Origin: an uncultured Gammaproteobacteria bacterium
GTDB taxonomy: Bacteria; Patescibacteriota; Microgenomatia; PFEM01; DATLAM01
Length of the DNA stretch: 56,914 nt
Direction: 5' to 3'
Assembly: GCA_964566925.1 (NCBI GenBank)
Contig: CAZMIZ010000006.1
Span: 1-56,914, forward strand
Made by a program: the position numbers and the translations under genes. Every line of letters begins with the position of its first letter. Positions within the stretch are counted from its first letter, which is position 1. The notes under the pieces are model-generated. The model saw only the letters and a list, made by a program, of their open reading frames with translations, did no database searches and was not told the DNA's origin. Shown piece by piece: positions 2,621 through 35,918 of the stretch.

Positions 2621-3325
2621 GTGAATGGAAATCAGAAAGAAGACGGCGTAATAACCGGGGAAGCCCAAAAGGCAGCCATCCGCCAAGCAGCTAAAGAGGA
2701 ACTTGATGAGGTAGTAAGAAAACATTCCCACCTAACCGGAGAGAAACCAATCGCCATATGGAAAAGCGGTCTTCATGGAGTAGTTTTCGAGGCGTTAGCT
2801 AAATATGACCCTCTTATTCCCAATAATGAACAGGAGAATCTTCAACGATTAAATGATTTACTCTTAGGAGCTATCCCAATTCATGGAGGCTTGCTTTATG
2901 AGGATCGCAATCAGAACACTCCGCAAATCCCTGATCGGCTTTTAATGAGTTATGACCCTGAAAATCAGGCTGCCACGATTATCGGCGTAGTTGAAGTCAA
3001 GATCAATCCCTTAAAGTTAAGAGCTAAATTAAGTAGATTTAAAAAAGATCCCTTGTCTTTGCTTGCGGATCAAATTGAAGAAACCAACAGCTTTCTTTCT
3101 GAGAGCGCCAGGGGGCATTACATCTCCCCGCCAGTAAGAAAACTACTCGTCGAGCCTCAAAAAACAATACGACGCTGCCTCGCAATTCCTCGCGGAGATG
3201 CTTTGGCTCGAAAAGGACACTATCGTCATTGGGAAATAGTCGAATCAACTTTTTCTCTCGAAGAAGTTAAGGCGATTACTCTAGATCTTTTTATGGCTGA
3301 GTCAAGACCTCAGCCCCGCTCGTGA
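2621..3325 (+). CDS. Hypothetical protein, possible PD-(D/E)xK nuclease fold
   Basis: HGVVFE...QIPDRLLMSY...IIGVVEVK pattern; GTG start after a TATTAT -10. Confidence 0.5.
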   Translation: MNGNQKEDGVITGEAQKAAIRQAAKEELDEVVRKHSHLTGEKPIAIWKSGLHGVVFEALAKYDPLIPNNEQENLQRLNDLLLGAIPIHGGLLYEDRNQNTPQIPDRLLMSYDPENQAATIIGVVEVKINPLKLRAKLSRFKKDPLSLLADQIEETNSFLSESARGHYISPPVRKLLVEPQKTIRRCLAIPRGDALARKGHYRHWEIVESTFSLEEVKAITLDLFMAESRPQPRS

Positions 3326-3839
3326 TTTCTCTCACTCTTTCCTTGATTGTCTTAATAAACTTTTTATCTTCAATAAAAGGAAGGTTAATTCTTACGTTTT
3401 CGAGGGCGCCGTAAATAGCAGCAGTTGCCAGCTCAATGGCACAATGGGCATCAGAGATGGTATTCTTATTGCCCTCTTTGGCGGCAAAAGCGGCCAGTTT
3501 CAAAACCTCCAAAGATTTTTGGGCCGTTTGCAAGGGAATTTCGGCCGCCGTTTGGATTGCCTCTTGGCTTTTAGTTTTAAAAACAGCTTGATAGGCTAAG
3601 GCATCCTCATCAGCTAAACGGAGAAGTTCGTCTTTTAAATCTTCAGCTTTATCTAAAATGCGTTGAAAATCATCTTCAACCTCTTGATACTTCTCCTTAC
3701 CAATGGTTAAATTGGCCACCATTGCTACTAAACTAGCGGCGATGGCGCCGGCCACAGCCGAAGCACTCCCCCCACCCGGCACCGGTTTCTTGCTAGCTAA
3801 ATCATCTAAAAATTGCTTGATCCTTTGATCTTTAATCAT
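3291..3839 (-). CDS. fchA: Formiminotetrahydrofolate cyclodeaminase
   Basis: FLDDLASKKPVPGGGSASAVAGA, NKNTISDA, ALENVRINL. Confidence 0.92.
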   Translation of the reverse strand: MIKDQRIKQFLDDLASKKPVPGGGSASAVAGAIAASLVAMVANLTIGKEKYQEVEDDFQRILDKAEDLKDELLRLADEDALAYQAVFKTKSQEAIQTAAEIPLQTAQKSLEVLKLAAFAAKEGNKNTISDAHCAIELATAAIYGALENVRINLPFIEDKKFIKTIKERVREITSGAEVLTQP

Positions 3840-4734
3840 GTTTCATCCTCTCTTCTAAAACCTGATCTTTCTTGAATTCAATTAATTGAAGTGCCTTTAG
3901 ATCGACTCCCTGAAGCGCGGCCCGAGGGATCATTCCGTAGATTTCCGAACCTAAAACTTCAACGCCTCTTTTTTGGGCTTCCTTTTTAATTTTAGCAAAA
4001 ACAACATCCATGTTCGTTTTCTCAAAATCACAAAGATTCATGGAAACTTGAACAAACCCTTGATCTTTAATTGCAAAACCCATCGCCTTGACTGCCGGGA
4101 AGCCGCCATCTTTTTCCCGAATCAGTTTAGCAATTTCTTTAGCTACCTGAACATCCTGGGTATCCAGGTTAACGTTGTAAGCAATCAGAAATTTGCGGGC
4201 GCCGATGACCATCGCTCCAGCGGCGGGGTGCATTTTGCTCGGCCCAAAATCAGGCTTCCGATCTGGATTAGTGACAATTTCTTTTTTTAACCCTTCATAC
4301 TCGCCTTTTCTAACGTTGGCTAAGTTGGCTCGTTCTGGCCGGGTCGCCGCCGCTTCATAAAGATAAACCGGAACCTTTAGCTCCTCGCCAACCTTCTTCC
4401 CTAGGCGCTTGGCTAAAGCCACACACTCCTCCATTGAAACATTGGCCACCGGAATAAAGGGAACCACGTCAGTGGCCCCAATGCGGGGATGTTCACCATG
4501 ATGTTTTTCCATGTCAATTAAGGCCGTTGCTTTTTTGATCATTCCCCAAACCGCCTGGAGAACCGCTTCCGGTTCACCCACTAAAGTTACTAAAGAGCGG
4601 TGATGATCTTTATCCCATTCAACATCAAGGACTTTAACTTTCTCCCGCCCCCGAGCGACATCGGCAATGGCTTTAATAACCTTTTGTTTTCTCCCTTCGG
4701 AGAAATTTGGTACGCATTCAACCAGTTTATCCAT
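3832..4734 (-). CDS. ftcD: Glutamate formiminotransferase / 5-formyl-THF cyclo-ligase substitute
   Basis: LVECVPNFSEGR, DHHRS, HHGEHPRIGATDVVPFIP, GARKFLIAYNVNL. Confidence 0.95.
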   Translation of the reverse strand: MDKLVECVPNFSEGRKQKVIKAIADVARGREKVKVLDVEWDKDHHRSLVTLVGEPEAVLQAVWGMIKKATALIDMEKHHGEHPRIGATDVVPFIPVANVSMEECVALAKRLGKKVGEELKVPVYLYEAAATRPERANLANVRKGEYEGLKKEIVTNPDRKPDFGPSKMHPAAGAMVIGARKFLIAYNVNLDTQDVQVAKEIAKLIREKDGGFPAVKAMGFAIKDQGFVQVSMNLCDFEKTNMDVVFAKIKKEAQKRGVEVLGSEIYGMIPRAALQGVDLKALQLIEFKKDQVLEERMKHD

Positions 4735-4761: not shown

Positions 4762-5328
4762 TTACCCCCGATAGACCTGATGACATTTGGCACAAACCGG
4801 AAAATATTCAGCTTCTTTGGTGGAGGCAATTTTGCCGGTTTTGCCGCTTACCCGTTCTGTATGGCTGGCTTTTTTTCCGCACTTCACGCAAATAGCAAAA
4901 AGTTCAATTTTTTCATCCGCCTTTTTAAAAAGATCCAGCGTCACTCCAAACGGCTTTTTGGTGTAGTCATATAAAAGGCCGGTGGCGTAGACATCAATTC
5001 CTTTAGCTAAAAGTTCGGCCACTAGCTTCTTGGCCTTGTCTTTGGGGAAAAAATTGATATTGTCAATAATCACTTTCATCTCGTCAGTAAAAATATATTT
5101 TAAAATCCGCTCCGGCTGATCAGGGTCAATAAAAATCACCGGGAGGGAACGTTCATCATGAGAGTTAGTGTGGCCCATACCGCCGCTACCGGCTACCTCT
5201 GCTTTAAAACAGAGAACGGGGTAACCCAGTCTGGTTAAAACCCGAAAGAGGGTCAAAGCCTTGTTGGTTTTACCAGCAAACATGGGGCCGGCGATAACCG
5301 TCAATCTACCTTTTTTCTTTCTGCCCAT
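4762..5328 (-). CDS. tdk: Thymidine kinase (TK1-type), with DE->DN change in the catalytic motif
   Basis: IAGPMFAGKT P-loop; CVKC...CAKC zinc lasso; IIDNINFF where IDEGQFF is expected. Confidence 0.85.
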   Translation of the reverse strand: MGRKKKGRLTVIAGPMFAGKTNKALTLFRVLTRLGYPVLCFKAEVAGSGGMGHTNSHDERSLPVIFIDPDQPERILKYIFTDEMKVIIDNINFFPKDKAKKLVAELLAKGIDVYATGLLYDYTKKPFGVTLDLFKKADEKIELFAICVKCGKKASHTERVSGKTGKIASTKEAEYFPVCAKCHQVYRG

Positions 5329-5339
5329 TTGCCTCCATT

Positions 5340-6542
5340 TTATTTCCCTAGAAATTCTTTTTCAACCACCAGCTTGACTTGTTCAAAAACTTCCTCTATT
5401 GGCTTTGAAGCGTCAATGGTAACCACGTTAGGAATCTCTTTTAAAAGTCTCTTATATCGAGCTCGCTTCTCTCTTAAAAGTTTTAGCTTTTCAAATTTAC
5501 CATATTCCTCCCCGGTCTCTTGATGGCGCTTTCGGACTCGCGCCAGGGCCACTTCAGGCTTGAGGTCAAAGAAAAAGACTTTATCAGGCGTCGGTCGGAA
5601 CCAAGAAAACAAAAAATTAACTAGGGCTACCTCTTCTTCGGTTTTAGCCTGATAAACCAAAGCCGAAAGATAACAACGGAGACTGATTATCCAGCGGCCT
5701 TTTTTTAGGACTGGCAGGATAAACCGCTGGATGTAATCCAGTCGATCTCCAGCTAGTAAAAAAGCCTCAACCATTGACCCAATTGGTTCTTTTCGCCATT
5801 GTTTTATCGTTTCTTTCCACCTAAGACTAGGGTGAAAAATGATTTCAGCTCTTTTACCTTTCTTTACTAAAAATTTTTTAAGCAACTTGGCAATCGTTTC
5901 TTTGCCTGTCCCCGAAGTACCCTCAAAAGCAAAATAATTGCCTGAGAAAACAGGCCAATTCCTGTTCCCCCGATCAAGTAAGCTCAAATAAAGCGGAATC
6001 AGCGGATATTGGTTTTGGGCAATCTGGCGGCTTTGGCGAAACTCCAAACCCTTAACCCGATCTTTCATCTTCTTTAGCCTCACAAAAGCCTTGGTCAGAC
6101 TTTCCCCTGCTTCGGCTGTATAAAAAAAGGAACGCAAGATGCCTTTGGCACCAAAACCGTCTAAAAAATCCGCATCTTTTAAAATTTTCGCTTCTAAAAC
6201 TTGAGGTGAATGTTTAGGTTCATCGTGTTCAGCAATGATATGACAAACTTTTTCAATTTCTTCCTTTTTGAAGCCCGCCTTTCTTAAAATCGGTTTAGCG
6301 AAACTAATCGATTCCCTTCTCGTGGCTTCGCCGTGAAGTTCCGGCTTTTTTCTACCTAAGTCATGGAGGAGGGCCGCGGCGATTAAAATTTCTTTATCGC
6401 CACCATGGGTCTTAGCTAAAAAAAGACAGTTTTCCGCCACACCAATAAGGTGATTAAGATCATGGGTGGGGCTTAGTTTTTCTCTTTTCAGCTGGGCAAG
6501 AAGAGCTTTGATTCTTTCTTTCTGAAAATTTTTATCAGTCAT
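5340..6542 (-). CDS. HD-domain phosphohydrolase fused to thymidylate kinase-like domain
   Basis: N-term HDLNH...LLHDLGR...EHD...DADFLD; C-term FEGTSGTGKET, RCYLSALVYQ, PDKVFFFDLKPEVALAR, IDASKPIEEV. Confidence 0.85.
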   Translation of the reverse strand: MTDKNFQKERIKALLAQLKREKLSPTHDLNHLIGVAENCLFLAKTHGGDKEILIAAALLHDLGRKKPELHGEATRRESISFAKPILRKAGFKKEEIEKVCHIIAEHDEPKHSPQVLEAKILKDADFLDGFGAKGILRSFFYTAEAGESLTKAFVRLKKMKDRVKGLEFRQSRQIAQNQYPLIPLYLSLLDRGNRNWPVFSGNYFAFEGTSGTGKETIAKLLKKFLVKKGKRAEIIFHPSLRWKETIKQWRKEPIGSMVEAFLLAGDRLDYIQRFILPVLKKGRWIISLRCYLSALVYQAKTEEEVALVNFLFSWFRPTPDKVFFFDLKPEVALARVRKRHQETGEEYGKFEKLKLLREKRARYKRLLKEIPNVVTIDASKPIEEVFEQVKLVVEKEFLGK

Positions 6543-7467
6543 TTTTTTGGATTTCCTTCAGCTCGGCAGGCAAATTACGAATGTCTTTGATGATTCTCCC
6601 TAAGGGATGGTTCTTAACATACTCTTCACTCCAGGGAGGAACATAAGGGGTTTTAAAGAGGAAAAAAGGAAAACCCATCATCAACGGCACGGAGCCAACT
6701 AAAGAAAAAATATCGCCGACCGTCACCAGTCTGGCACCATCGTTGGCCTGATCTAGGAGAGCTCGGTAATAAACTGGCCGCCTCAAATCAACCTTAAACT
6801 CCCCATTAACCGGCAAAGTCTGAATCTTGCCAAGGTCAGGGTGGTTAAAATAATAATCCCAGCTGGCATCCATATGGTATTGGCGGGTATCGCCCAGGAT
6901 ATCAATCTTGTATTTGAATCCTTTCTTATCGTCTCCTTCTTCGGTAATCCCGATAGTTTCTAGGTTTTTCTTGACCTTGTCAGTTTTAGAATTGGTCAAA
7001 ACAATCGGCTGGATTTGGGGATGACCAATCATTTCAATCAAAGTTTCTTTGGCTCCTTCTCGAAAACTAGGCTCAAGAAAAGCGGTGTTCTTATGGAAAA
7101 GATAGTTGGTGCATTCGGCGACCGGATCATATTCTCGACCACCAAAAGCAGCTTTTACTCGTTCTTGATAAAAACCGTTGCTAGAAAGCATTTCTTGGAT
7201 GGTGGTCGTGTTTAGGGTAAAAGCGCCTTCATAACTGTAAGCCGCCGGCAGGCCGTTAACTTTCCAGAGATATTTTTGGGGTTCGGCCATAATTTTTTTC
7301 TGGGTCGCCCAATAATCTCTTTTAACCCGAGCCCTGGGAATGCCTAAAATTTCTTTGGCCAAAACATCAATCGCTTTCTCAATCAACTGATTAACTTGAT
7401 CTTCCTCTCGAGTCAAGGTGCCGTCGTAATCAATAATAACTTTCATCTTTTTCTTTTTTGGAGCCAT
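6535..7467 (-). CDS. HAD-superfamily hydrolase-like protein
   Basis: VIIDYDGTL motif I, VLTNS motif II, VGD motif IV. Confidence 0.7.
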   Translation of the reverse strand: MAPKKKKMKVIIDYDGTLTREEDQVNQLIEKAIDVLAKEILGIPRARVKRDYWATQKKIMAEPQKYLWKVNGLPAAYSYEGAFTLNTTTIQEMLSSNGFYQERVKAAFGGREYDPVAECTNYLFHKNTAFLEPSFREGAKETLIEMIGHPQIQPIVLTNSKTDKVKKNLETIGITEEGDDKKGFKYKIDILGDTRQYHMDASWDYYFNHPDLGKIQTLPVNGEFKVDLRRPVYYRALLDQANDGARLVTVGDIFSLVGSVPLMMGFPFFLFKTPYVPPWSEEYVKNHPLGRIIKDIRNLPAELKEIQKND

Positions 7468-8066
7468 TTTTTGACCTCGCTAGTTAGATATTCTTTGTCG
7501 GTTTTTCTTTTTACATAATTGATCTTTTTGGTATCGATTGTCAAGACAGGAATTTTAGTTTTTCCAATAAAACTTTCACAATTATCAATTAATCGCTGCC
7601 AATAATTTTTAGGGGTCTTCAATTCATACTTTCTCCCCCGGGAAGCAATCCTGGGCAACAGTTGGTCAAGACCAACCTGAAGGTAAATTAAAAGGTCGGG
7701 AACGGGCAGATCTTCAAGCAGGCTTTGGTAAATCATCTCATAAAGATCCCATTCTCTATCCTTAAGTCTGGCTTTAGCAAAAACCAGAGCGTCTTGAAAG
7801 ATGGGCGGCTCGTGAATAACTCCCTTTTTCACCAGCAAGGGAGTAATTTTTTTCATCTGCTTGGTCTTTTGGATCAAGAAAAAAACCTGAGAATGAAAAC
7901 TCCACCGCTTCATATCTTGATAGGAATCAGCTAAGAAGGGGTTGTTTTCAAACTCTTCCTCAAAAATTCGGAAGCCAAGCTCTTTTCCTAAAATCCGCGC
8001 CACCGTCGTCTTACCCGCTCCAACCGGCCCCATGATAGTAATGTAAGGATGTTTTTTCTTGACCAT
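7443..8066 (-). CDS. Deoxynucleoside kinase (Dgk/Dck family)
   Basis: ITIMGPVGAGKTT, ENNPFLADSYQDMKRWSFHSQVFFL, PDLLIYL, RIASRGRKYE. Confidence 0.88.
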   Translation of the reverse strand: MVKKKHPYITIMGPVGAGKTTVARILGKELGFRIFEEEFENNPFLADSYQDMKRWSFHSQVFFLIQKTKQMKKITPLLVKKGVIHEPPIFQDALVFAKARLKDREWDLYEMIYQSLLEDLPVPDLLIYLQVGLDQLLPRIASRGRKYELKTPKNYWQRLIDNCESFIGKTKIPVLTIDTKKINYVKRKTDKEYLTSEVKKWLQKRKR

Positions 8067-8068
8067 AG

Positions 8069-8779
8069 TTACGCCCGCTCTTTGTTAATCCCAGGTTGCC
8101 CTTCTTTGGCAAGATGGGCAGATAAGATTTGCGAGGCAACGGCTTCTACGTTTCGCCTGAAGACATCGAAGCATTCGGTCCCGTTTTCGATGATGTAAGT
8201 CGGCACCCCCATCTCCTTTAATCCAGGCAATAGCCTACCCATAAAATCGCTACCACCAAAGAGGGTTTCCATTGCCAAAGGAGGAACAAAAAAGGAAACT
8301 TCTCCAAGCTGGGACCGAGGGTTTTCTTTGCGCTTCTCATTCCAAGCAAAACGTAAATGCCGAGGCGTCCGAACATAAACCATCACCGATCTCTGCCAAA
8401 TTCCTCTAGGGACAAGGTTGTCTTCCAATAATCTTCCAAAGCTCAAGTCAAGTTCTGGATAACGACTGCCAATACCCCTAGCTACTTCAATGAGATTTAT
8501 TTGTCTTTCTTTTGCTAGAGGGACTTGGGCCACCCAACGACGAACGGCTTCATCAAGGGGATATTGGTGGGTGATACAGAAAGCTGGATTGCCTTCGTTT
8601 TCAAGAGGCCGAACATGCCAATTTCTCTCCTTATCTTCTTCGACTATACTCACCAGGGTCTCACCGTCACTTATCAGCTGACAGATAAAACCCTTCCGTC
8701 CCATTAGCTCTCTGGTAATTGACCGAGCAGCTGTCTTGCCTCCGCCGGCGACCCCGGCGAAGATAATAATGTCTCTCAT
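8069..8779 (-). CDS. Uncharacterised P-loop (nucleotide kinase-like) protein
   Basis: IIIFAGVAGGGKT at N-terminus, LIEVARG, VRTPRHLRFAWNEKR. Confidence 0.6.
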   Translation of the reverse strand: MRDIIIFAGVAGGGKTAARSITRELMGRKGFICQLISDGETLVSIVEEDKERNWHVRPLENEGNPAFCITHQYPLDEAVRRWVAQVPLAKERQINLIEVARGIGSRYPELDLSFGRLLEDNLVPRGIWQRSVMVYVRTPRHLRFAWNEKRKENPRSQLGEVSFFVPPLAMETLFGGSDFMGRLLPGLKEMGVPTYIIENGTECFDVFRRNVEAVASQILSAHLAKEGQPGINKERA

Positions 8780-9555: not shown

Positions 9556-10113
9556 CTATCTTTCGCCGGTGAAGCGCCAACCTCGCTTCTTTAAAATTAT
9601 CTGGGGGTAGCCTATCCGAACAAAGTTGCGCTTGTCAATCCCCAATTGGGAGAAAATTTGCATAATTTTTTGTTGAGCTTCTTTACCCTTCTCTTTTCCG
9701 GTAATGATCTCCATTTCAATAAAATCTCCTAATCCTTTAATTTGGTCAAGACAAAAAACAATTTTCCCTAACTTCCCTGGGATTCTTTTTTTCTCAAGGA
9801 TTAACGCCAACCCAAAACCCATGGCTTCGATTAACCTTCTTGCTTCTTGGGGGCTATCAATCCCAAATTCATACTCCACCCAAACACCCTTTCTTTCAGT
9901 CAAACCCTTGTAAGCCAGAAAATGCTTGCCGTTCTCACTCCGGATTCTTAAAAGATAGTCACCCGACTTTTGTGATTTTGTCTTAATCGCTTCTCTGTGG
10001 TAAAACAACCAGTCTTTCTGGTTTAAAACCGAGCCGAATTGAGCCCTCATGGCTTTCAGCTTTCGCCTCAGGGTGGAAAGATTTTTAACTTTAGCCTTGA
10101 CCTCTACTTCCAT
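9556..10113 (-). CDS. cyaB: CYTH-domain protein (class IV adenylate cyclase family)
   Basis: MEVEVKAKV ExExK motif, LRIR, LAYKG, LDQIKGLGDFIEME, GY. Confidence 0.88.
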   Translation of the reverse strand: MEVEVKAKVKNLSTLRRKLKAMRAQFGSVLNQKDWLFYHREAIKTKSQKSGDYLLRIRSENGKHFLAYKGLTERKGVWVEYEFGIDSPQEARRLIEAMGFGLALILEKKRIPGKLGKIVFCLDQIKGLGDFIEMEIITGKEKGKEAQQKIMQIFSQLGIDKRNFVRIGYPQIILKKRGWRFTGER

Positions 10114-10118
10114 TTTAA

Positions 10119-11138
10119 TTAAGAAGATTCTGGTTCTCTTAGATCTCTTTCTATTAGCGACAAAAGCATTTGTCGATGCCTCTTTGGATAGTCATTTTTT
10201 GCCTCCCCAGGTCTCTTTTCTAAGTTTTGAACGAAATTATCTATTTGGTCCGGCGTCATTTCTGCCCCGATCTTTCTCGACCAGGCTACCGGAAGCTTCA
10301 CCCCTCTCTGTTCAGACCACTCAATTGCCAAATCCCCTGAAATAAATTCCAAAAACGCTCTTAAATAATCTTCCTCTTCCACCTTCTCCTTTGTTTTGGG
10401 GAATCTTAACTTCCTTATAAGTTCATTCACCCGTTTAAAAATGAACCTTTCGGAAGAAAAAATGCGCCTAATTGATACATCCTTCTCTCTCGCTAATAAA
10501 TGACTGGGGTAAGTATGGGCTCCCCCCATGATAACGACTATCCTTCGCCTGGCCTGTTCTTCTTCAGAACCTGAGAAGATCCTATCCTTAATTTGGTCTA
10601 CCATTACGGTCTCCCGCGCTTCGACTTCTTGTACCGTCGCTTGAATCCAGTCTTTAAATAGGCGATACGCTTTCTTAATCTGACCAGCCTCTTTGACAGT
10701 CGATAGCCGCTCCTCTAACTGCTCTATCCGTTTTCCAAAAGTTTTCGTAACAGGTTCCTCTTCACTAACATCAATTAGAAAAAATTTTTTACCTGTTCCT
10801 CCGATTTTCCTAATCAGCGCCTTAATTATGTCTGGCTCTAAAGGTAATAAATCTGATAACCCCACTGTTGTAGAATGGGCTTTATCTGCGTCATAAGGGG
10901 TGTCTGAGAGTTCATTTATCCGCTTTTCAATTTTTCTTCTCTCTTCGTTGGATAACCCCATCGCTTCCACTAGAATCGTATCCCCTTCTTTTAAGGCGAT
11001 TTCTGCCGATCTAAAAACGTTTTTACTATGCCTCACAAAAATGAAAGTACAGGGTGCTTTAGGGTTCTCTATTTGCTCAGTAGCAACGTCGGGGGGCTCT
11101 GTTTTTCCTGGTTTTTCTAAGTTCGTTTCGCCACTCAT
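10119..11138 (-). CDS. Hypothetical protein (weak ChaN/TraB/EreA-like motif pattern)
   Basis: 339-aa ORF in operon orientation; IFVRH, LVE, RETVM, VVIMGGAH. Confidence 0.55.
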   Translation of the reverse strand: MSGETNLEKPGKTEPPDVATEQIENPKAPCTFIFVRHSKNVFRSAEIALKEGDTILVEAMGLSNEERRKIEKRINELSDTPYDADKAHSTTVGLSDLLPLEPDIIKALIRKIGGTGKKFFLIDVSEEEPVTKTFGKRIEQLEERLSTVKEAGQIKKAYRLFKDWIQATVQEVEARETVMVDQIKDRIFSGSEEEQARRRIVVIMGGAHTYPSHLLAREKDVSIRRIFSSERFIFKRVNELIRKLRFPKTKEKVEEEDYLRAFLEFISGDLAIEWSEQRGVKLPVAWSRKIGAEMTPDQIDNFVQNLEKRPGEAKNDYPKRHRQMLLSLIERDLREPESS

Positions 11139-11140
11139 TT

Positions 11141-12004
11141 TTAATCAAAAAAGCCGAATTCGTCGTCGGCTTGCTTCTTCTTTTTTTTCAAAACTACCGG
11201 TTCGTCTTGAACATAATCAAGGCCATTTTTTAAACAAACCTCTGCCTTAGCTAGTTCTCGGCCTAAATAAGCGGCATGGTCTTTAGCCTCCTTAAAATCA
11301 CCAATCAGTTTCTTATTAATAATAGTATCGGTGATCTCATGGGCTGTTTGGCCGGCAATTTTTAAATCCATTTCAAAATTAGAATTGTAGTGAGCAGCAA
11401 TAATTAATTTCTTCTTTTTATCAATTGTAATCTGGAACGAGCCTTTCGGATCAGTCATATATTGAGCGTCAACTTTCTTGGCTCTCACCATTTTTATTTT
11501 TCGTTTTTTAATCTTAACGACTTTCAATCGCTTGCCGGTAAATTTACCTGGTTTTTTGCGCCAAAGTTCCTCAATCTTAAACTGGATTTTTTGACTATTG
11601 GTTTCGCCTCGCAAATCGACCACTAAAATCTGTTTTCTAAACCTTTCAATTTCCTCAAGGGTTAGATGTTTTAAAAGAGGAATTGAGCCTTTGGAGCCAA
11701 CCACCCTCATTTCTTTATCCACCCCATTCTTGGCTAAAGCTAGAAGAGTTTGGCCAACCGCATGGCCTTTAGAAACTTTACCGCAAACAATCAAAAACCG
11801 AATATTGGGATTGGCGATTAAATTCTTAACAATCCGCTCCACCCCCACGTTTTCGGTCACGCATTTCCCAATCACCGCTATCTTTTCCAGGTCAACCTTA
11901 ATCCCGGAAATAGTGGCTTCAGTACAAACCGCCACCGGAGAATGAGAATTGCCCAACCGATAACGTCCCACCTCAACTGGCCAACTACCCGCCTTTTTTG
12001 CCAT
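11141..12004 (-). CDS. MtrA-like corrinoid-binding protein fused to DUF4346
   Basis: WPVEVGRY.LGNSHSPVAVCT, TENVGVERIVKNLIANPNIRFLIVCG..SKGH.VGQ, IERFRKQ; C-term DPKGSFQI...HAAYLGRELAKAE...YVQD. Confidence 0.88.
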   Translation of the reverse strand: MAKKAGSWPVEVGRYRLGNSHSPVAVCTEATISGIKVDLEKIAVIGKCVTENVGVERIVKNLIANPNIRFLIVCGKVSKGHAVGQTLLALAKNGVDKEMRVVGSKGSIPLLKHLTLEEIERFRKQILVVDLRGETNSQKIQFKIEELWRKKPGKFTGKRLKVVKIKKRKIKMVRAKKVDAQYMTDPKGSFQITIDKKKKLIIAAHYNSNFEMDLKIAGQTAHEITDTIINKKLIGDFKEAKDHAAYLGRELAKAEVCLKNGLDYVQDEPVVLKKKKKQADDEFGFFD

Positions 12005-12022: not shown

Positions 12023-13795
12023 TTAAACTTTAAAAACTTTTCTCTCTTTAAACTCGCGCCGCTTTCCCTTATTCCACCATTTCACCGGCCGAAAATAGCC
12101 GACGATCCGCGAATAGACCTCCGTCTCTCGACCACAAGTTGGGCAGCGTTCCTGCTTACCTTTTAACCGGCCATGGTCAGCACAGATGCTAAAGGTAGGC
12201 GTAACCGTAAAATAAGGCAGTTTGGTATTCTCGGCAATCTTCTTGACCAATTTTTTTGTCGTTAGGTAACTGGGCATCTCTTCCCCTAAAAAGCAATGGA
12301 AAACGGTGCCGCCGGTATAAAGCGACTGGACTTCGCTTTGATGAAGTAAGGCCTCCCAAAGATCATCAGTGGCGTCCACTGGTAACTGAGTGGAGTTGGT
12401 TAAATAAGGCGCCTTTTTGGTCCCCGCGGTCACCACCCCCGGGCAAAACTGCTGATCTAAAAGGGCCAATCGATAGGTAGTTGATTCACCAGGAGTCGCC
12501 TCAAGATTATAAAGATGGCCTGTTTCTTTTTGGAATTTAATCAACTTATCGCGCATAAATTTCAAAACCTTAATGATAAACGCTTTTCCTTTTGGCTGAT
12601 CAATCCCCACCCCTAGAAGATTAAGGCAGGCTTCATGGCCCCCGATAATCCCCATGGTGGAAAAATAATTTCTGAAAGTGCCCAAATAAGCTTTGGTATA
12701 AGGCATTAAGCCTTTCTTGAGATTGGCGGTAATCTTTCCTCTCTTAATCTCCAAAGATTCCTTGGCCAATTCCATGTATTTTTCTAACAACTCAAAGAAA
12801 CGTTTTTCCGTCTTTGCCTTAAAAGCAAGTCGGTTAAGATTAATAGTCACGTTGCCAATCGACCCAGTCGAATCACCCTTACCCCAAAGATTGCCTGGCT
12901 GTTGCATCAGCTGTTGCAGGTTTAAGTGCAGACGGCAACACATCGCCCGGATAGATCGAGGATCAAGATTGCTACCAATATAATTTTGAAAGTAGGGTAA
13001 ACCATACTTGGCGGTTAATTGAAACAAAAGTCGGGCATTTTCAGAATCCCAATCAAAATCAGGAGTCAGATTGTAGGTGGGAATGGGAAAGGTAAAAAGT
13101 CTCCCTTTATCGTCACCCTCAAGCATGATTTCCAAGAAGGCTCGGTTAATCAGGTCCATTTCTTTCTGAAAGTCAGCATATTTTTTCTTTTGGGGCTTGC
13201 CGCCAATAATCGCCGGTTCTTTAGCTAAATCTTGGGGAACCACCCAATCAAAGGTGAGATTGGTAAAAGGCATCTCAAATCCCCATTTACTAGGAACGTT
13301 AAGAGAAAAAACGAGCCGCTGGATGTTCTGCTTAACTTTTTCGTAACCTAGCTTATCTTCGGCCACAAAAGGCGCCAGTAAAGTGTCCACCGAAGAGAAA
13401 GCTTGAGCCCCAGCAAATTCATTGTAGGTTGCTCTTAAAAAATTAATCATGTGAATGATGGCGGCATCAAAGTGCCTGGCCGGTCCGGAATCCATCTGCC
13501 CAGGAACATGCCCGAAACCCATTAACAAAAGATTTTTGAGTGACCAGCCAGCACAATAACCAGTTAAACCGTGGGTTAAGTCGTGGATATGGAAACAGCC
13601 TTCCTCATGAGCTTTTTTAATTTTTGGGGGGTAAACTTCATTTAAAGTATAGTTAGCCACAACTGCCCCGGCGGTGTGAAGAACTAGACCGGAAAAGGAA
13701 TAATTCGAATTACTATTAGCTTTTGTTTTCCAGCCATTTTCAGTAAGGTAATCTTCAACTACCTTTTTAACGTTAAGCAATTTCCCGTCTTCCAT
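12023..13795 (-). CDS. nrdD: Anaerobic (class III) ribonucleoside-triphosphate reductase, no ATP cone
   Basis: HIHDL, YCAGW, AMCCRL, NLEATPGEST, YTGGTVFH, CADHG..CPTC, YSRIVGY glycyl-radical loop. Confidence 0.96.
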   Translation of the reverse strand: MEDGKLLNVKKVVEDYLTENGWKTKANSNSNYSFSGLVLHTAGAVVANYTLNEVYPPKIKKAHEEGCFHIHDLTHGLTGYCAGWSLKNLLLMGFGHVPGQMDSGPARHFDAAIIHMINFLRATYNEFAGAQAFSSVDTLLAPFVAEDKLGYEKVKQNIQRLVFSLNVPSKWGFEMPFTNLTFDWVVPQDLAKEPAIIGGKPQKKKYADFQKEMDLINRAFLEIMLEGDDKGRLFTFPIPTYNLTPDFDWDSENARLLFQLTAKYGLPYFQNYIGSNLDPRSIRAMCCRLHLNLQQLMQQPGNLWGKGDSTGSIGNVTINLNRLAFKAKTEKRFFELLEKYMELAKESLEIKRGKITANLKKGLMPYTKAYLGTFRNYFSTMGIIGGHEACLNLLGVGIDQPKGKAFIIKVLKFMRDKLIKFQKETGHLYNLEATPGESTTYRLALLDQQFCPGVVTAGTKKAPYLTNSTQLPVDATDDLWEALLHQSEVQSLYTGGTVFHCFLGEEMPSYLTTKKLVKKIAENTKLPYFTVTPTFSICADHGRLKGKQERCPTCGRETEVYSRIVGYFRPVKWWNKGKRREFKERKVFKV

Positions 13796-22978: not shown

Positions 22979-23674
22979 TTATCTTAAAATCTCATTTACT
23001 GTCGCCTGCAAATTAGTAATCAATTTATAAGTGAGCGTCTGCGAGAGAATCTCTTTGACTTTATCCAAAACTGTTTCTTGGTTTTTTAGTTTTTCAGTTT
23101 CTCCGTCATTCTTAGCTTTAACGGCTAAGAACGGGTGTTCTCCGGTAACTTTGACTTTCTTCCCACTTTCAGTTTCCAATTCATAATAGCCTTCTCTGGT
23201 ATATTCCAGAATTCCAGAAACCGTATTTTCCTTAATTTCTCCTGTTTCTGGATCAAATGAAGAAACAAGATCACCTTCTTCCAAATCTTTTATTTGGAGT
23301 TTTGGAGTTTTGCCTGCCTTGCCGGCGGGCAGGGAGCTTTCGGTATTTACCTCCGTTTCTCCCGTAAAACATCCGCCGCCGCCGCAACACTGACTGTATT
23401 CGTTCCCGTCATCATCCGCGCATTCTTGATAACTAACAGTTTTTGTGACACCAGGAGGATTACATAAATCAACGCCGCATTCTTGGCAAGGTTCCCAACC
23501 TTCGTCACATAATGACTGTGGACAACCACTCGAAACACTATAACAAGCCAAACAGGTCCCTGGAGGAATCCAGGTATCTCCTGCTAAAACTATTTTAGGC
23601 AGAAGAAATAAAGATAAGATTAAAATGAAAAAAAATCCTAAAAATAACTTTTTAAGATTCATCAGGCTCCTCAT
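22979..23674 (-). CDS. Secreted Cys-rich protein ending in the N-terminal half of a Hint domain
   Basis: Signal peptide ending VLA/GD; GGGG-CFTGETEV...IKDLEEGDLVSSFD...KVTGEHPFL (Hint blocks A and B). Confidence 0.8.
   Translation of the reverse strand: MRSLMNLKKLFLGFFFILILSLFLLPKIVLAGDTWIPPGTCLACYSVSSGCPQSLCDEGWEPCQECGVDLCNPPGVTKTVSYQECADDDGNEYSQCCGGGGCFTGETEVNTESSLPAGKAGKTPKLQIKDLEEGDLVSSFDPETGEIKENTVSGILEYTREGYYELETESGKKVKVTGEHPFLAVKAKNDGETEKLKNQETVLDKVKEILSQTLTYKLITNLQATVNEILR
23313..23333. repeat. REP-like palindrome inserted in frame (encodes LPAGKAG)
   Basis: CCTGCC-TTGCCGGCG-GGCAGG. Confidence 0.65.
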
Positions 23675-34494: not shown

Positions 34495-35043
34495 ATGGCA
34501 ATTCAAAAAATCATCACTGTGTCTAATCCGTCGCTGCGCAAGAAGTCAAAGCCGATCAGAAAAGTAGACCAAAAGATCAAAAATTTGGCTAAAGATTTAA
34601 TTGATACGGCTAAGGCCGCCAAAGAGCCTAGGGGTGTTGGCCTTTCCGCGGTTCAAATCAACCAGCCAGTCAGGATTTTCGTGATTAAGCGGGGTAAGAA
34701 ATTTGTCCCTTTTATTAATCCCCAGATCGTTTGGCAATCAAAAAAGCGCTTCAGTCAAGTTCTGGAAAAAGAAAAACTCTTCATGGAAGGTTGTCTTTCA
34801 ATCCCGGGCTACTACGGCTTTGTTGATCGACCTCATGCAGCGAAGCTTAAATGGCAGGATCTTCAGGGGAAAACCCACCAAGAACAATTCGAAAATCGAG
34901 AATCGGCTTATGTCCAGCATGAACTTGACCATTTGAACGGTGTCCTTTTCGTTGACCGAATCTTAAAGCAAAAAGGCAGTGTCTATAAACTGGGTAAAGA
35001 TGATCAAGGCGAGGAAACCTTGGTTGAAGTTAATCTTCCATGA
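34495..35043 (+). CDS. def: Peptide deformylase
   Basis: GVGLSAVQI, EGCLSIP, QHELDHLNG. Confidence 0.97.
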   Translation: MAIQKIITVSNPSLRKKSKPIRKVDQKIKNLAKDLIDTAKAAKEPRGVGLSAVQINQPVRIFVIKRGKKFVPFINPQIVWQSKKRFSQVLEKEKLFMEGCLSIPGYYGFVDRPHAAKLKWQDLQGKTHQEQFENRESAYVQHELDHLNGVLFVDRILKQKGSVYKLGKDDQGEETLVEVNLP

Positions 35044-35918
35044 AACCAAGAGTCATTTTTTTTGGTTCTGATAAATGCTCTGTTATCGTGCTGAATCAAT
35101 TGGTTAATGACAGCCGGTTCAAGATTGTGGGCGTGGCCACCCTTGAACCCAAGCCAAAAGGGAGAAAGCGCGAAGTAACCCCTAATCCGGTTGAAGAATA
35201 CACGAAAACTCTTTTTGAGATTAAATTTTTCCCTATTAAAAGATTTGATCAAAAATCAATCAATCAATTCAAGAAACTCAAAGCCGATGTCGGTATCTTG
35301 GCCTGGTACGGTAAGATTCTGCCTAAAGAAATCCTGGCAGTTCCTAAGTATGGAGTGCTAAACATCCACCCTTCTCTCCTCCCCAAATATCGCGGGCCTT
35401 CTCCGGTCCAAGATGCCATCATCAATGGCGATCAGGAAGCTGGAGTAACTATCTTTAAGATGGATGAGCAAATGGACCATGGCCCGATTGTGGCTCAATT
35501 CAAAGAAGAGATTAAGTCTAACGACACCGCCGAATCTTTGTACGAACGGCTTTTTACTCTCGGCGGTCAAGTACTAACCACTATTCTTCCTTCTTATCTA
35601 GAGAGCCAGATTAAACTCCGCCCCCAGAATCATCGCCAAGCCACTTTTACCCGAATCCTCAACCGAGATAGCGGCAAAATCGACTGGACGTTAGCCGACC
35701 AGCAAATTGAACGTCTTATCCGAGCCATGCACCCCTGGCCTGGCGCCTGGACCCTCCTTCGCTCTCCGAGCTTCGAAGGGCAGGCAAAAAGGTTAAAAAT
35801 CCTGGAAGCCCATCTTGAAAAAGGTAAGCTAATCTTAGATCGGGTTCAGCTTGAAGGGAAAAAACCAGTCGCCTGGAAGCAATTTCAAGAAGGCTATCCT
35901 GATTCGAAACTGATTTAA
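35040..35918 (+). CDS. fmt: Methionyl-tRNA formyltransferase
   Basis: NIHPSLLPKYRGPSP, MDEQMDHGPI, RAMHPWPGAW. Confidence 0.96.
   Translation: MKPRVIFFGSDKCSVIVLNQLVNDSRFKIVGVATLEPKPKGRKREVTPNPVEEYTKTLFEIKFFPIKRFDQKSINQFKKLKADVGILAWYGKILPKEILAVPKYGVLNIHPSLLPKYRGPSPVQDAIINGDQEAGVTIFKMDEQMDHGPIVAQFKEEIKSNDTAESLYERLFTLGGQVLTTILPSYLESQIKLRPQNHRQATFTRILNRDSGKIDWTLADQQIERLIRAMHPWPGAWTLLRSPSFEGQAKRLKILEAHLEKGKLILDRVQLEGKKPVAWKQFQEGYPDSKLI
35752..35785. repeat. REP-like palindrome inserted in frame in fmt (encodes LLRSPSFEGQA)
   Basis: CCCTCCTTCGCTCTCCGAGCTTCGAAGGGCAGGC; resembles the reverse complement of 22892-22925. Confidence 0.6.

Follow-up and report, generated by a model that had tools for sequence, protein, structure and literature searches.

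The window analysed here, the whole of contig CAZMIZ010000006.1 (56,914 nucleotides, or 57 kb), carries on its minus strand an open reading frame (ORF) of 287 residues in which a corrinoid-binding domain of the MtrA type is followed by a domain of the DUF4346 family. From the sequence of this MtrA-DUF4346 protein and the gene neighbourhoods of its relatives, we infer that it is the soluble, cobamide-carrying subunit of a thymidylate-synthesis module arranged around an archaeal-type ThyA. In the reading that we prefer, to which a probability of roughly 0.45 can be given, the protein would carry a methyl-cobamide and the ThyA would be a methylcobamide:dUMP methyltransferase, with no need for a dihydrofolate reductase (DHFR). 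The broader proposal that archaeal/methanogen-type ThyA enzymes with an MtrA-like partner methylate dUMP from methylcobamide, and represent a third, B12-dependent mechanism of thymidylate synthesis besides those of ThyA and ThyX, is put forward slightly more tentatively. Thymidylate synthesis is essential and a classic drug target, and only these two mechanisms are known to us.

The N-terminal part of the protein (residues 4-168) matches the Pfam family PF04208 (MtrA) with 160 bits against a cut-off of 25 (E 5.5e-47), and residues 185-267 match PF14251 (PterinBD-DUF4346) with 80.3 bits against a gathering threshold of 29.6 (E 1.8e-22). The nearest solved structure is that of the cobalamin-bound cytoplasmic MtrA homologue of Methanothermus fervidus (PDB code: 5LAA; E 1e-39, 43-44% identity). 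An AlphaFold2 model of the ORF, built from 65 homologues, has a predicted local distance difference test (pLDDT) score of 89; a fold search of the PDB with the whole model returned MtrA structures as the only matches, and its MtrA domain superposes on 5LAA with a template-modelling (TM) score of 0.89-0.90. In the alignment, CGKVSKGHAVGQ of the window protein pairs with CGSEVQGHIVGQ of 5LAA, and His81 therefore corresponds to the cobalt ligand His84. The cobalamin of 5LAA is contacted by His84, Asn55, Thr53, Asn64, Gly57, and Tyr18 together with backbone atoms, and Thr53 and Asn55 hold the nucleotide tail and a propionamide (Wagner et al., PMC4915002). The equivalents of these six residues are H81, N52, T50, N61, G54, and Y15, respectively; all six are invariant or nearly so, and H81 is strictly invariant, across the 65 homologues, which are 42-80% identical to the window protein. 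Thus, an MtrA-type corrinoid-binding fold with an intact His-on/base-off site is well supported for the N-terminal domain on the basis of sequence and modelled fold. The preliminary description, which had read from the letters alone an MtrA signature with the cobamide-ligating His, a Lys-rich linker leading to DUF4346, and no membrane anchor, is borne out by the PF04208 match and the alignment of His81 with His84, by the Lys/Arg content of residues 156-180 ahead of the PF14251 match (Table 1), and by a highest 19-residue Kyte-Doolittle mean of 0.97, at which no anchor is predicted. A DPANN-type homologue of 466 aa (P0192) contains an intein remnant ending ...VHN directly before CVTEN, and the intein is thus inserted between GK and CVTEN of the cobamide-binding motif GKCVTEN; inteins usually reside at functionally critical sites.

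Genes for DUF4430 and DUF6580 proteins lie just upstream of the module in loci of Nealsonbacteria, Pacebacteria, and Parcubacteria. This pair was found in four genome loci and in 14 of the 31 metagenome loci with enough upstream DNA, and it stands upstream of the order dCTP deaminase (DCD)-MtrA/DUF4346-ThyA in L002 (8341-9416), L003 (8856-9988), L014, and the 14 metagenome loci. The domain of the secreted DUF4430 protein is the C-terminal part of transcobalamins (PMC4350170), and the DUF6580 membrane-protein profile, compared with the PDB, matched one chain only, the 182-aa 'Membrane protein' of 6FNP (E 5.6e-4), which is the ECF-CbrT vitamin B12 transporter (PMC5997447). The length of that chain suggests that it is the S-component CbrT, and DUF6580 is likely to be a cobamide uptake component distantly related to CbrT. 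Cobamide binding by the window protein is accordingly a supported prediction, drawing on the conserved contacts and on the B12-uptake pair adjacent in relatives.

At face value, the protein could be taken for subunit A of the tetrahydromethanopterin:coenzyme M methyltransferase of methanogenesis, since it matches the Pfam MtrA family and its homologues are named 'tetrahydromethanopterin S-methyltransferase subunit A' in databases. The probability of this is negligible: the TIGR01111 score is 144.2 against an equivalog cut-off of 249.15, a transmembrane helix is lacking, the C-terminal half consists of the linker and DUF4346, and the gene resides in a deoxynucleotide-synthesis context of a bacterial host. 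A search of the 57-kb window for MtrH homologues found none. The earlier statement that no other mtr subunit is in the window therefore holds for MtrH and for the 38 window ORFs scanned with Pfam, among which no Mtr subunit was seen, the small subunits MtrB-G not having been searched for one by one. Membership in the Mtr complex was rejected on the equivalog score, the missing membrane helix, the lack of Mtr neighbours, and the bacterial host. Genes for MreB, MreC, PBP2, DprA, and a TopA of bacterial type, together with an L10 leader, mark the host as a bacterium. Among named organisms, Gottesmanbacteria and other Patescibacteria have the closest homologues of the ORF, and an origin of the window in the candidate phyla radiation (CPR) is likely on this indirect evidence. 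A phage or viral origin of MtrA-DUF4346 was considered and rejected, because no homologue was found by tblastn in 50,697 phage records and none in IMG/VR.

The link with thymidylate synthesis was examined in both directions. A scan of GTDB species genomes with MtrA-DUF4346 returned 80 loci, among which the CPR/DPANN group (L002-L027, 41-74% identity) has an archaeal-type ThyA downstream in 23 of 25 informative loci. The ThyA gene of these genomes often overlaps the stop codon of the preceding gene, and DCD is located just upstream in the CPR loci and approximately 3 kb off in the DPANN loci. Reciprocally, metagenome contigs were searched with the ThyA family, and 68 loci with at least 900 bp of upstream sequence were informative. 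Both MtrA and DUF4346 are present in 63 of these and fused in 47 of the 63; the other five have DUF4346 and a truncated upstream flank, so that no ThyA locus among the 68 is without DUF4346. Several clusters contain a DCD-MtrA-DUF4346 fusion of ~490 aa, and archaeal-looking contigs encode five MtrA-like-ThyA-DUF4346 fusions of 460-545 aa (P0163, P0227, P0177, P0220, and P0234). The co-occurrence and fusion check proposed in the preliminary description thus came out positive both ways, and its tie between the MtrA module and thymidylate synthesis is upheld. It is well supported that MtrA-DUF4346 and a short ThyA form a conserved pair across CPR bacteria and DPANN archaea, sometimes fused into one chain, and a functional link of MtrA-DUF4346 to dTMP synthesis is strongly supported by these genomic associations. 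The closest genome match (L007, DATLAM010000038.1, 4953 bp, 74% identity) is labelled Candidatus Bathyarchaeia; this short contig shows the CPR-type order, with DCD upstream and CYTH downstream, and is therefore probably mis-binned.

The most informative relatives for the chemistry are operons in which the components are separate genes. In 20 archaeal metagenome loci, with RadA and RPA nearby, MtrH lies beside a ThyA that is 56-60% identical to the window ThyA. The split set comprises an MtrA-like protein of ~196 aa in which the His is kept, an MtrH-like protein of ~278 aa, a stand-alone DUF4346 of ~99 aa, and ThyA, and the genes in the order mtrA-mtrH-DUF4346-thyA overlap or are separated by 12 nt or less in most of the 14 resolved loci. 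Methylenetetrahydrofolate reductase (MTHFR) is encoded within 6 kb in 11 of these 14, and in L142, the sole locus where the gene between MTHFR and mtrA was scanned with Pfam, that gene encodes serine hydroxymethyltransferase (SHMT). Only one core methionine synthase was found among the archaeal MtrH-ThyA loci. An Altiarchaeota genome has the order MtrA-MtrH-ThyA-DUF4346. In Thermoplasmata and Methanomassiliicoccales (L054-L072 and L080; e.g. L054:9033-12734), the corresponding order is MTHFR-MtrA-MtrH-core MetE (Meth_synt_2)-DUF4346, in effect a methionine synthase of the MetH type divided among several proteins. In L137, MtrA and MtrH are fused, and core MetE and DUF4346 come next. Core methionine synthases (MesA) have been predicted to accept methyl groups from MtrA (Price et al. 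2021, PMC7857596). ThyA, the only conserved partner of the window-type gene, holds the place of core MetE in the sister operons and therefore the position of a known methylcobamide-acceptor enzyme type. By analogy, this arrangement suggests that ThyA acts downstream of enzymes that make methyl-pterin and load the corrinoid, a linear chain being the simplest reading. The archaeal mtrA-mtrH-DUF4346-thyA operons lend support to the soluble B12-dependent methyl or one-carbon (C1) shuttle suggested in the preliminary description, and none to its alternative of a pterin-recycling partner.

These operons also bear on the view that the corrinoid protein serves a different acceptor, in methionine synthesis or in RNA or DNA modification, and neighbours thyA merely through a shared C1 pool. 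The MtrA/MtrH/DUF4346 set does serve core methionine synthase in Thermoplasmata and L137, and N-terminally extended MtrA-DUF4346 proteins of non-CPR bacteria have no ThyA nearby. However, the CPR/DPANN clade shows a near-obligate pairing with ThyA in both directions, the fused-type loci contain no core methionine synthase, and the fusions are specifically with DCD and ThyA, which makes another acceptor distinctly improbable.

The methylcobamide reading could be formulated as follows. SHMT would transfer a C1 unit from serine to give methylene-pterin, MTHFR would reduce this to methyl-pterin, so that reduction precedes transfer, and MtrH would use methyl-pterin to load the cobamide, giving CH3-Co(III)-MtrA; the cobamide would thus cycle between Co(I) and CH3-Co(III). 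ThyA, as the acceptor-side methyltransferase (MT2) of the corrinoid system, would activate dUMP by addition of Cys182 at C6, and the resulting C5 carbanion would take CH3+ straight from CH3-Co(III) to yield dTMP. No dihydropterin or dihydrofolate would be formed, hence no DHFR would be required, and the redox balance would be the same as for ThyA plus DHFR. An activated C5 carbanion attacks S-adenosylmethionine in m5U and m5C methyltransferases, and TsrM provides a precedent for polar C-methylation from methylcobalamin.

The partner enzyme has features of its own. The window ThyA scores 136 bits with TIGR03283, under the model cut-off of 174.55, and its catalytic C182 and dUMP-binding R154-R155, N213, and Y245 align with C146, R126-R127, N177, and Y209 of E. 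coli ThyA, the equivalents of which are kept throughout the family. In an hhalign profile comparison between the ThyA family and E. coli ThyA, residues 108-213 alone align. All members of the archaeal-type family end ~15 residues past the Tyr209 equivalent, and the C-terminal 40-50 residues that close over folate in the classical enzymes are therefore missing. Residues 99-135 of the window ThyA form a 35-aa insertion (R[CH]YPDC...GKC) with near-invariant Cys104 and Cys133, which recurs in the CPR, DPANN, and L142-type enzymes but not in the Altiarchaeota ThyA or the triple fusions; it may form an interface, bind a metal, or be redox-active. Experimental characterization of archaeal or methanogen ThyA enzymes is scarce (PMC9931769; PMC9012536), and dTMP formation has been shown only in cell-free extracts with the enzymes unidentified, according to one of these two papers.

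Several observations weigh against a methyl transfer from cobamide to dUMP. Searches for MtrH and MTHFR gave nothing in the 57-kb window, nor within 6-10 kb of the fused CPR-type genes, and no Pterin_bind protein, a candidate for the donor-side methyltransferase (MT1), lies within 6-10 kb of the window gene or of the fused CPR-type loci. The operon's glutamate formiminotransferase and formimino-tetrahydrofolate (THF) cyclodeaminase, together with the methionyl-tRNA formyltransferase Fmt, would suit a classical supply of methylene-THF no less. The partner ThyA family has an invariant Asp at the position that contacts the pterin ring in classical enzymes (D169 in E. coli). In the triple fusions, the MtrA-like domain has Ser or Phe in place of the His ligand, and the T/S-x-N motif is also gone in two of the five; some lineages may therefore operate without a His-on cobamide. 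Finally, the model of the DUF4346 domain matches no fold in the PDB (best E 0.09), and its fold therefore offers no functional clue. The two ORFs of 339 and 236 aa in the operon were considered as the missing MT1 or a reductase and rejected, since neither matches any family and the 339-aa ORF does not occur in close relatives.

Some of the same facts would be expected if MtrA-DUF4346 recycled the pterin or supplied reductant. ThyA would then be classical and use methylene-THF, and MtrA-DUF4346 would reduce dihydrofolate or give two electrons so that THF is released, the latter variant resembling ThyX with cobamide instead of flavin. Gene pairs and fusions of ThyA with DHFR are the classical precedent for so close a tie (PMC9931769). 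The 80 ThyA loci examined contained no FolA-like ORF, ThyA retains the Asp that binds the pterin, THF-dependent formiminotransferase, cyclodeaminase, and Fmt are encoded in the window, and DUF4346 is elsewhere fused to pterin-binding domains and ferredoxins. Nonetheless, the MtrH and MTHFR of the sister operons would be left without a role, the CPR protein has no Fe-S or flavin motif for re-reduction of cobalt, and the absence of FolA from 12-kb loci tells little about whole genomes. No similarity to DHFR was detected in the 287-aa ORF by Pfam and NCBIfam scans, nor among its sequence and fold matches in the PDB. Known His-on/base-off corrinoid proteins are methyl carriers or radical isomerases, and we know of none that reduces pterins. 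Pterin recycling is thus regarded as unlikely.

In the triple fusions, the MtrA-like fold is kept and the His ligand and part of the tail-binding motif are lost, as a structural role would predict. The module could then be non-catalytic and work as a scaffold, help in assembly, or regulate a classical archaeal-type ThyA in response to B12, for instance by tying dTMP synthesis to the cobamide supply or by keeping DCD and ThyA in contact. The fusion with DCD, which suggests metabolite channelling, and the conserved docking-type peptide at the C-terminus of the CPR forms agree with such a role. This peptide, an acidic-aromatic motif [DE][DE][FY]GW.., is common to the CPR homologues and absent from the DPANN forms in the comparison of 65 homologues, and in the window protein it probably serves to dock a partner protein. 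On the other hand, the cobalamin contacts are invariant or nearly so across CPR/DPANN homologues only 42-80% identical, a dedicated B12-uptake pair adjoins the module in relatives, and the association with MtrH in the sister operons points to catalysis, so that a purely structural or regulatory role is also considered improbable, about to the same degree as pterin recycling.

DUF4346 itself occurs in every soluble MtrA system encountered, with or without MtrH, and is therefore not the donor-side methyltransferase. An exhaustive search yielded 634 representative proteins, and architectures were derived from the best 148 of them: besides stand-alone proteins of ~100-160 aa, DUF4346 follows MtrA in 29, a dihydropteroate synthase (DHPS)-like Pterin_bind domain in 23 (mostly with DUF6513), single-cluster ferredoxins in ~9-15, ThyA in six, core MetE in two, CdhD in two, and a BtuF-like periplasmic-binding fold in one. 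The domain is modelled with a pLDDT of 93, and D185, P186, G188, H205, H243, Y246, E250, K253, E255, Y264, Q266, and D267 are near-invariant. Because of the near-invariant polar residues and the ferredoxin fusions, DUF4346 might have an accessory function in which it covers the exposed cobamide or restores its activity, much as the cap and activation modules do in MetH, although this analogy is a weak one. No paper on DUF4346 was found. The DHPS-like-DUF4346 proteins of Methanothrix, Archaeoglobi, and others were set aside, as their neighbours are CitG-like, DUF447, PAC2, L7Ae, and IF-2 genes and show no link with ThyA. In a Hydrothermarchaeota metagenome-assembled genome (L058:9980-12360), an MtrA-like gene with a C-terminal GYF_2 domain is convergent, tail to tail, with a DUF6513-Pterin_bind-DUF4346 gene; this is the only locus with a DHPS-like DUF4346 protein beside an MtrA-like gene.

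The window gene belongs to a minus-strand run from 13795 to 3291 that begins with NrdD and ends with formimino-THF cyclodeaminase, all genes having the same orientation (Table 1). Judged by its gene content, the operon is a supply unit for deoxynucleotides, specifically for dTTP (dUMP to dTTP), with two THF-dependent C1 enzymes at its end. The preliminary description had placed the ORF between a ribonucleotide reductase and ThyA; NrdD is indeed directly upstream, but ThyA is two genes downstream rather than adjacent, with the 339-aa ORF and the CYTH gene lying in between. The 339-aa ORF is absent from L088 and other loci and is therefore a lineage-specific insertion, and the substrate of the CYTH protein may be a (deoxy)nucleoside triphosphate, dUTP for example. 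DCD is missing from this operon, whereas it is present in 46 of 48 fused loci. The presence of Fmt and of the THF-dependent C1 enzymes indicates that the organism uses ordinary folates, and the host, a bacterium with a reduced genome, seems to charge THF with C1 units taken from a formimino donor. FolD, GlyA, and FolA were not seen among the 38 window ORFs scanned against Pfam.

Table 1. Coordinates of the MtrA-DUF4346 gene, its domains and motifs, and other genes in the 57-kb window. dNTP, deoxynucleoside triphosphate.
Feature	Position (nt)	Strand	Basis or remarks
MtrA-DUF4346 ORF, 287 aa	11141..12004	(-)	Corrinoid domain, Lys-rich linker, DUF4346, acidic-aromatic tail
MtrA-like Rossmann-type corrinoid-binding domain, aa 4-168	11501..11995	(-)	PF04208, 5LAA match, fold superposition
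Motif GKCVTEN, aa 46-52	11849..11869	(-)	T50 and N52 = Thr53 and Asn55 of 5LAA; both invariant
Motif CGKVSKGHAVGQ, aa 74-85	11750..11785	(-)	His81 (11762-11764), predicted lower axial cobalt ligand
Lys/Arg-rich flexible linker, aa 156-180	11465..11539	(-)	48% Lys+Arg; pLDDT drops to 81-83
DUF4346 domain, aa 185-267, three strands then two helices	11204..11452	(-)	PF14251, conservation, domain model
Disordered Lys-rich tail, DDEFGFFD at end	11144..11203	(-)	pLDDT <50; tails of 65 homologues compared
Class III anaerobic ribonucleotide reductase NrdD, first gene of operon	12023..13795	(-)	PF13597 580 bits; NF006126 900 bits
339-aa ORF, no family match	10119..11138	(-)	Absent from close relative L088 and other loci
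CYTH (triphosphate tunnel) protein	9556..10113	(-)	Recurs between MtrA-DUF4346 gene and thyA in L006, L007, L088
Archaeal/methanogen-type ThyA, 259 aa	8776..9555	(-)	Catalytic Cys182; C-terminal 40-50 residues gone; 35-aa insertion
P-loop ORF, 236 aa, no family match	8069..8779	(-)	P-loop-like GVAGGGKT motif
Deoxynucleoside kinase	7443..8066	(-)	
HAD-like protein	6535..7467	(-)	
HD-dTMP kinase	5340..6542	(-)	
Thymidine kinase	4762..5328	(-)	
Glutamate formiminotransferase (FTCD_N + FTCD)	3832..4734	(-)	
Formimino-THF cyclodeaminase (FTCD_C)	3291..3839	(-)	
Methionyl-tRNA formyltransferase Fmt	35040..35918	(+)	Outside the dNTP operon

Compared with known systems, the window protein comes closest to the corrinoid component of three-component methyltransferase systems, the presumed acceptor here being an enzyme of the ThyA fold. 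It shares the Rossmann-type fold, the His ligand, and the nucleotide-tail pocket with MtrA of the Na+-translocating N5-methyl-tetrahydromethanopterin:coenzyme M methyltransferase and with the cytoplasmic MtrA homologues (5LAA, 5L8X, and 8Q3V), and like the cytoplasmic homologues of methanogens it is devoid of a membrane helix. Unlike MtrA, it adds DUF4346 and a docking tail, belongs to a non-methanogenic bacterium, and is paired with ThyA in a dNTP operon; unlike MtrA of the Mtr complex, it has no Mtr genes nearby, as far as the MtrH search and the Pfam scan of 38 ORFs reach, the small subunits not having been searched for singly. As in systems composed of MT1, a corrinoid protein, and MT2, the sister operons hold MTHFR, MtrH (as MT1), an MtrA-like corrinoid protein, and an acceptor enzyme, and DUF4346 would match a cap or activation module of MetH. 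In contrast to MT1/MT2 systems, MetH, and core MetE, the acceptor would have a ThyA fold and the nucleophile would be a carbon (C5 of dUMP) rather than a thiolate; moreover, no MT1 is found near the CPR genes, and the fold of DUF4346 has no solved relative. The module shares with classical ThyA plus DHFR (FolA) the product dTMP, the ThyA core fold, the catalytic Cys, and the dUMP-binding residues, and its tight genetic coupling of ThyA to a second protein is similar to that of thyA-folA pairs and DHFR-thymidylate synthase fusions. It differs from classical ThyA/DHFR and from ThyX in that the partner is a corrinoid protein and the ThyA carries the Cys insertion and lacks the folate-closing C-terminus. 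A literature search on the pairing of MtrA-DUF4346 with ThyA (MtrA, thymidylate synthase, CPR, DPANN, and corrinoid protein) found no description, in line with the initial remark that no characterized function is known for it.

The C1 donor of archaeal-type ThyA and its operation without DHFR are questions that are decades old. The purified enzyme of M. thermoautotrophicum (Krone et al. 1994) is said to have carried out partial reactions only. The near-obligate coupling of ThyA to a cobamide protein makes the question testable with a few recombinant proteins. If the methylcobamide mechanism is correct, it would account for how ThyA-bearing archaea and CPR/DPANN organisms manage without FolA, as well as for the lack of a purified archaeal ThyA shown to run the classical reaction. 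The finding also predicts that many CPR bacteria and DPANN archaea need vitamin B12 to make DNA, a point of relevance to their host dependence and to culturing. DUF4346 and the 'MtrA' annotations of non-methanogens gain a first functional context, and 'mtrA' in such genomes should be used with caution as a marker of methanogenesis.

A second family combining MtrA with DUF4346, the 390-aa 'MtrA' of NF002128/PRK00964.1-6 from Firmicutes, Chloroflexi, Verrucomicrobia, and Deltaproteobacteria, is 32-39% identical to the window protein. It differs in possessing an N-terminal Cys-rich domain of ~110 aa, which the window protein lacks, and in having no ThyA within 10 kb; the window protein scores 200.6 against the NF002128 cut-off of 568 and covers profile positions 111-369 only. 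These extended proteins, with an N-terminal CxxCxC...CxxCxxC domain, were found in L028-L053 and L078 (e.g. L036:9608-10861 and L078:8731-9894), and their hosts are Firmicutes (including the isolate Desulfosporosinus metallidurans), Chloroflexi, Verrucomicrobia, Planctomycetota, and Deltaproteobacteria. Their neighbours encode ArsR-family regulators, HMA-type P-type ATPases, RND pumps, and a Cys-rich membrane protein, and the extended form may be a corrinoid system tied to metals or metalloids. Elsewhere in the window, a 231-aa ORF (22979-23674, minus strand) matches only Hint/intein-splicing domains and seems to be free-standing, outside any host protein.

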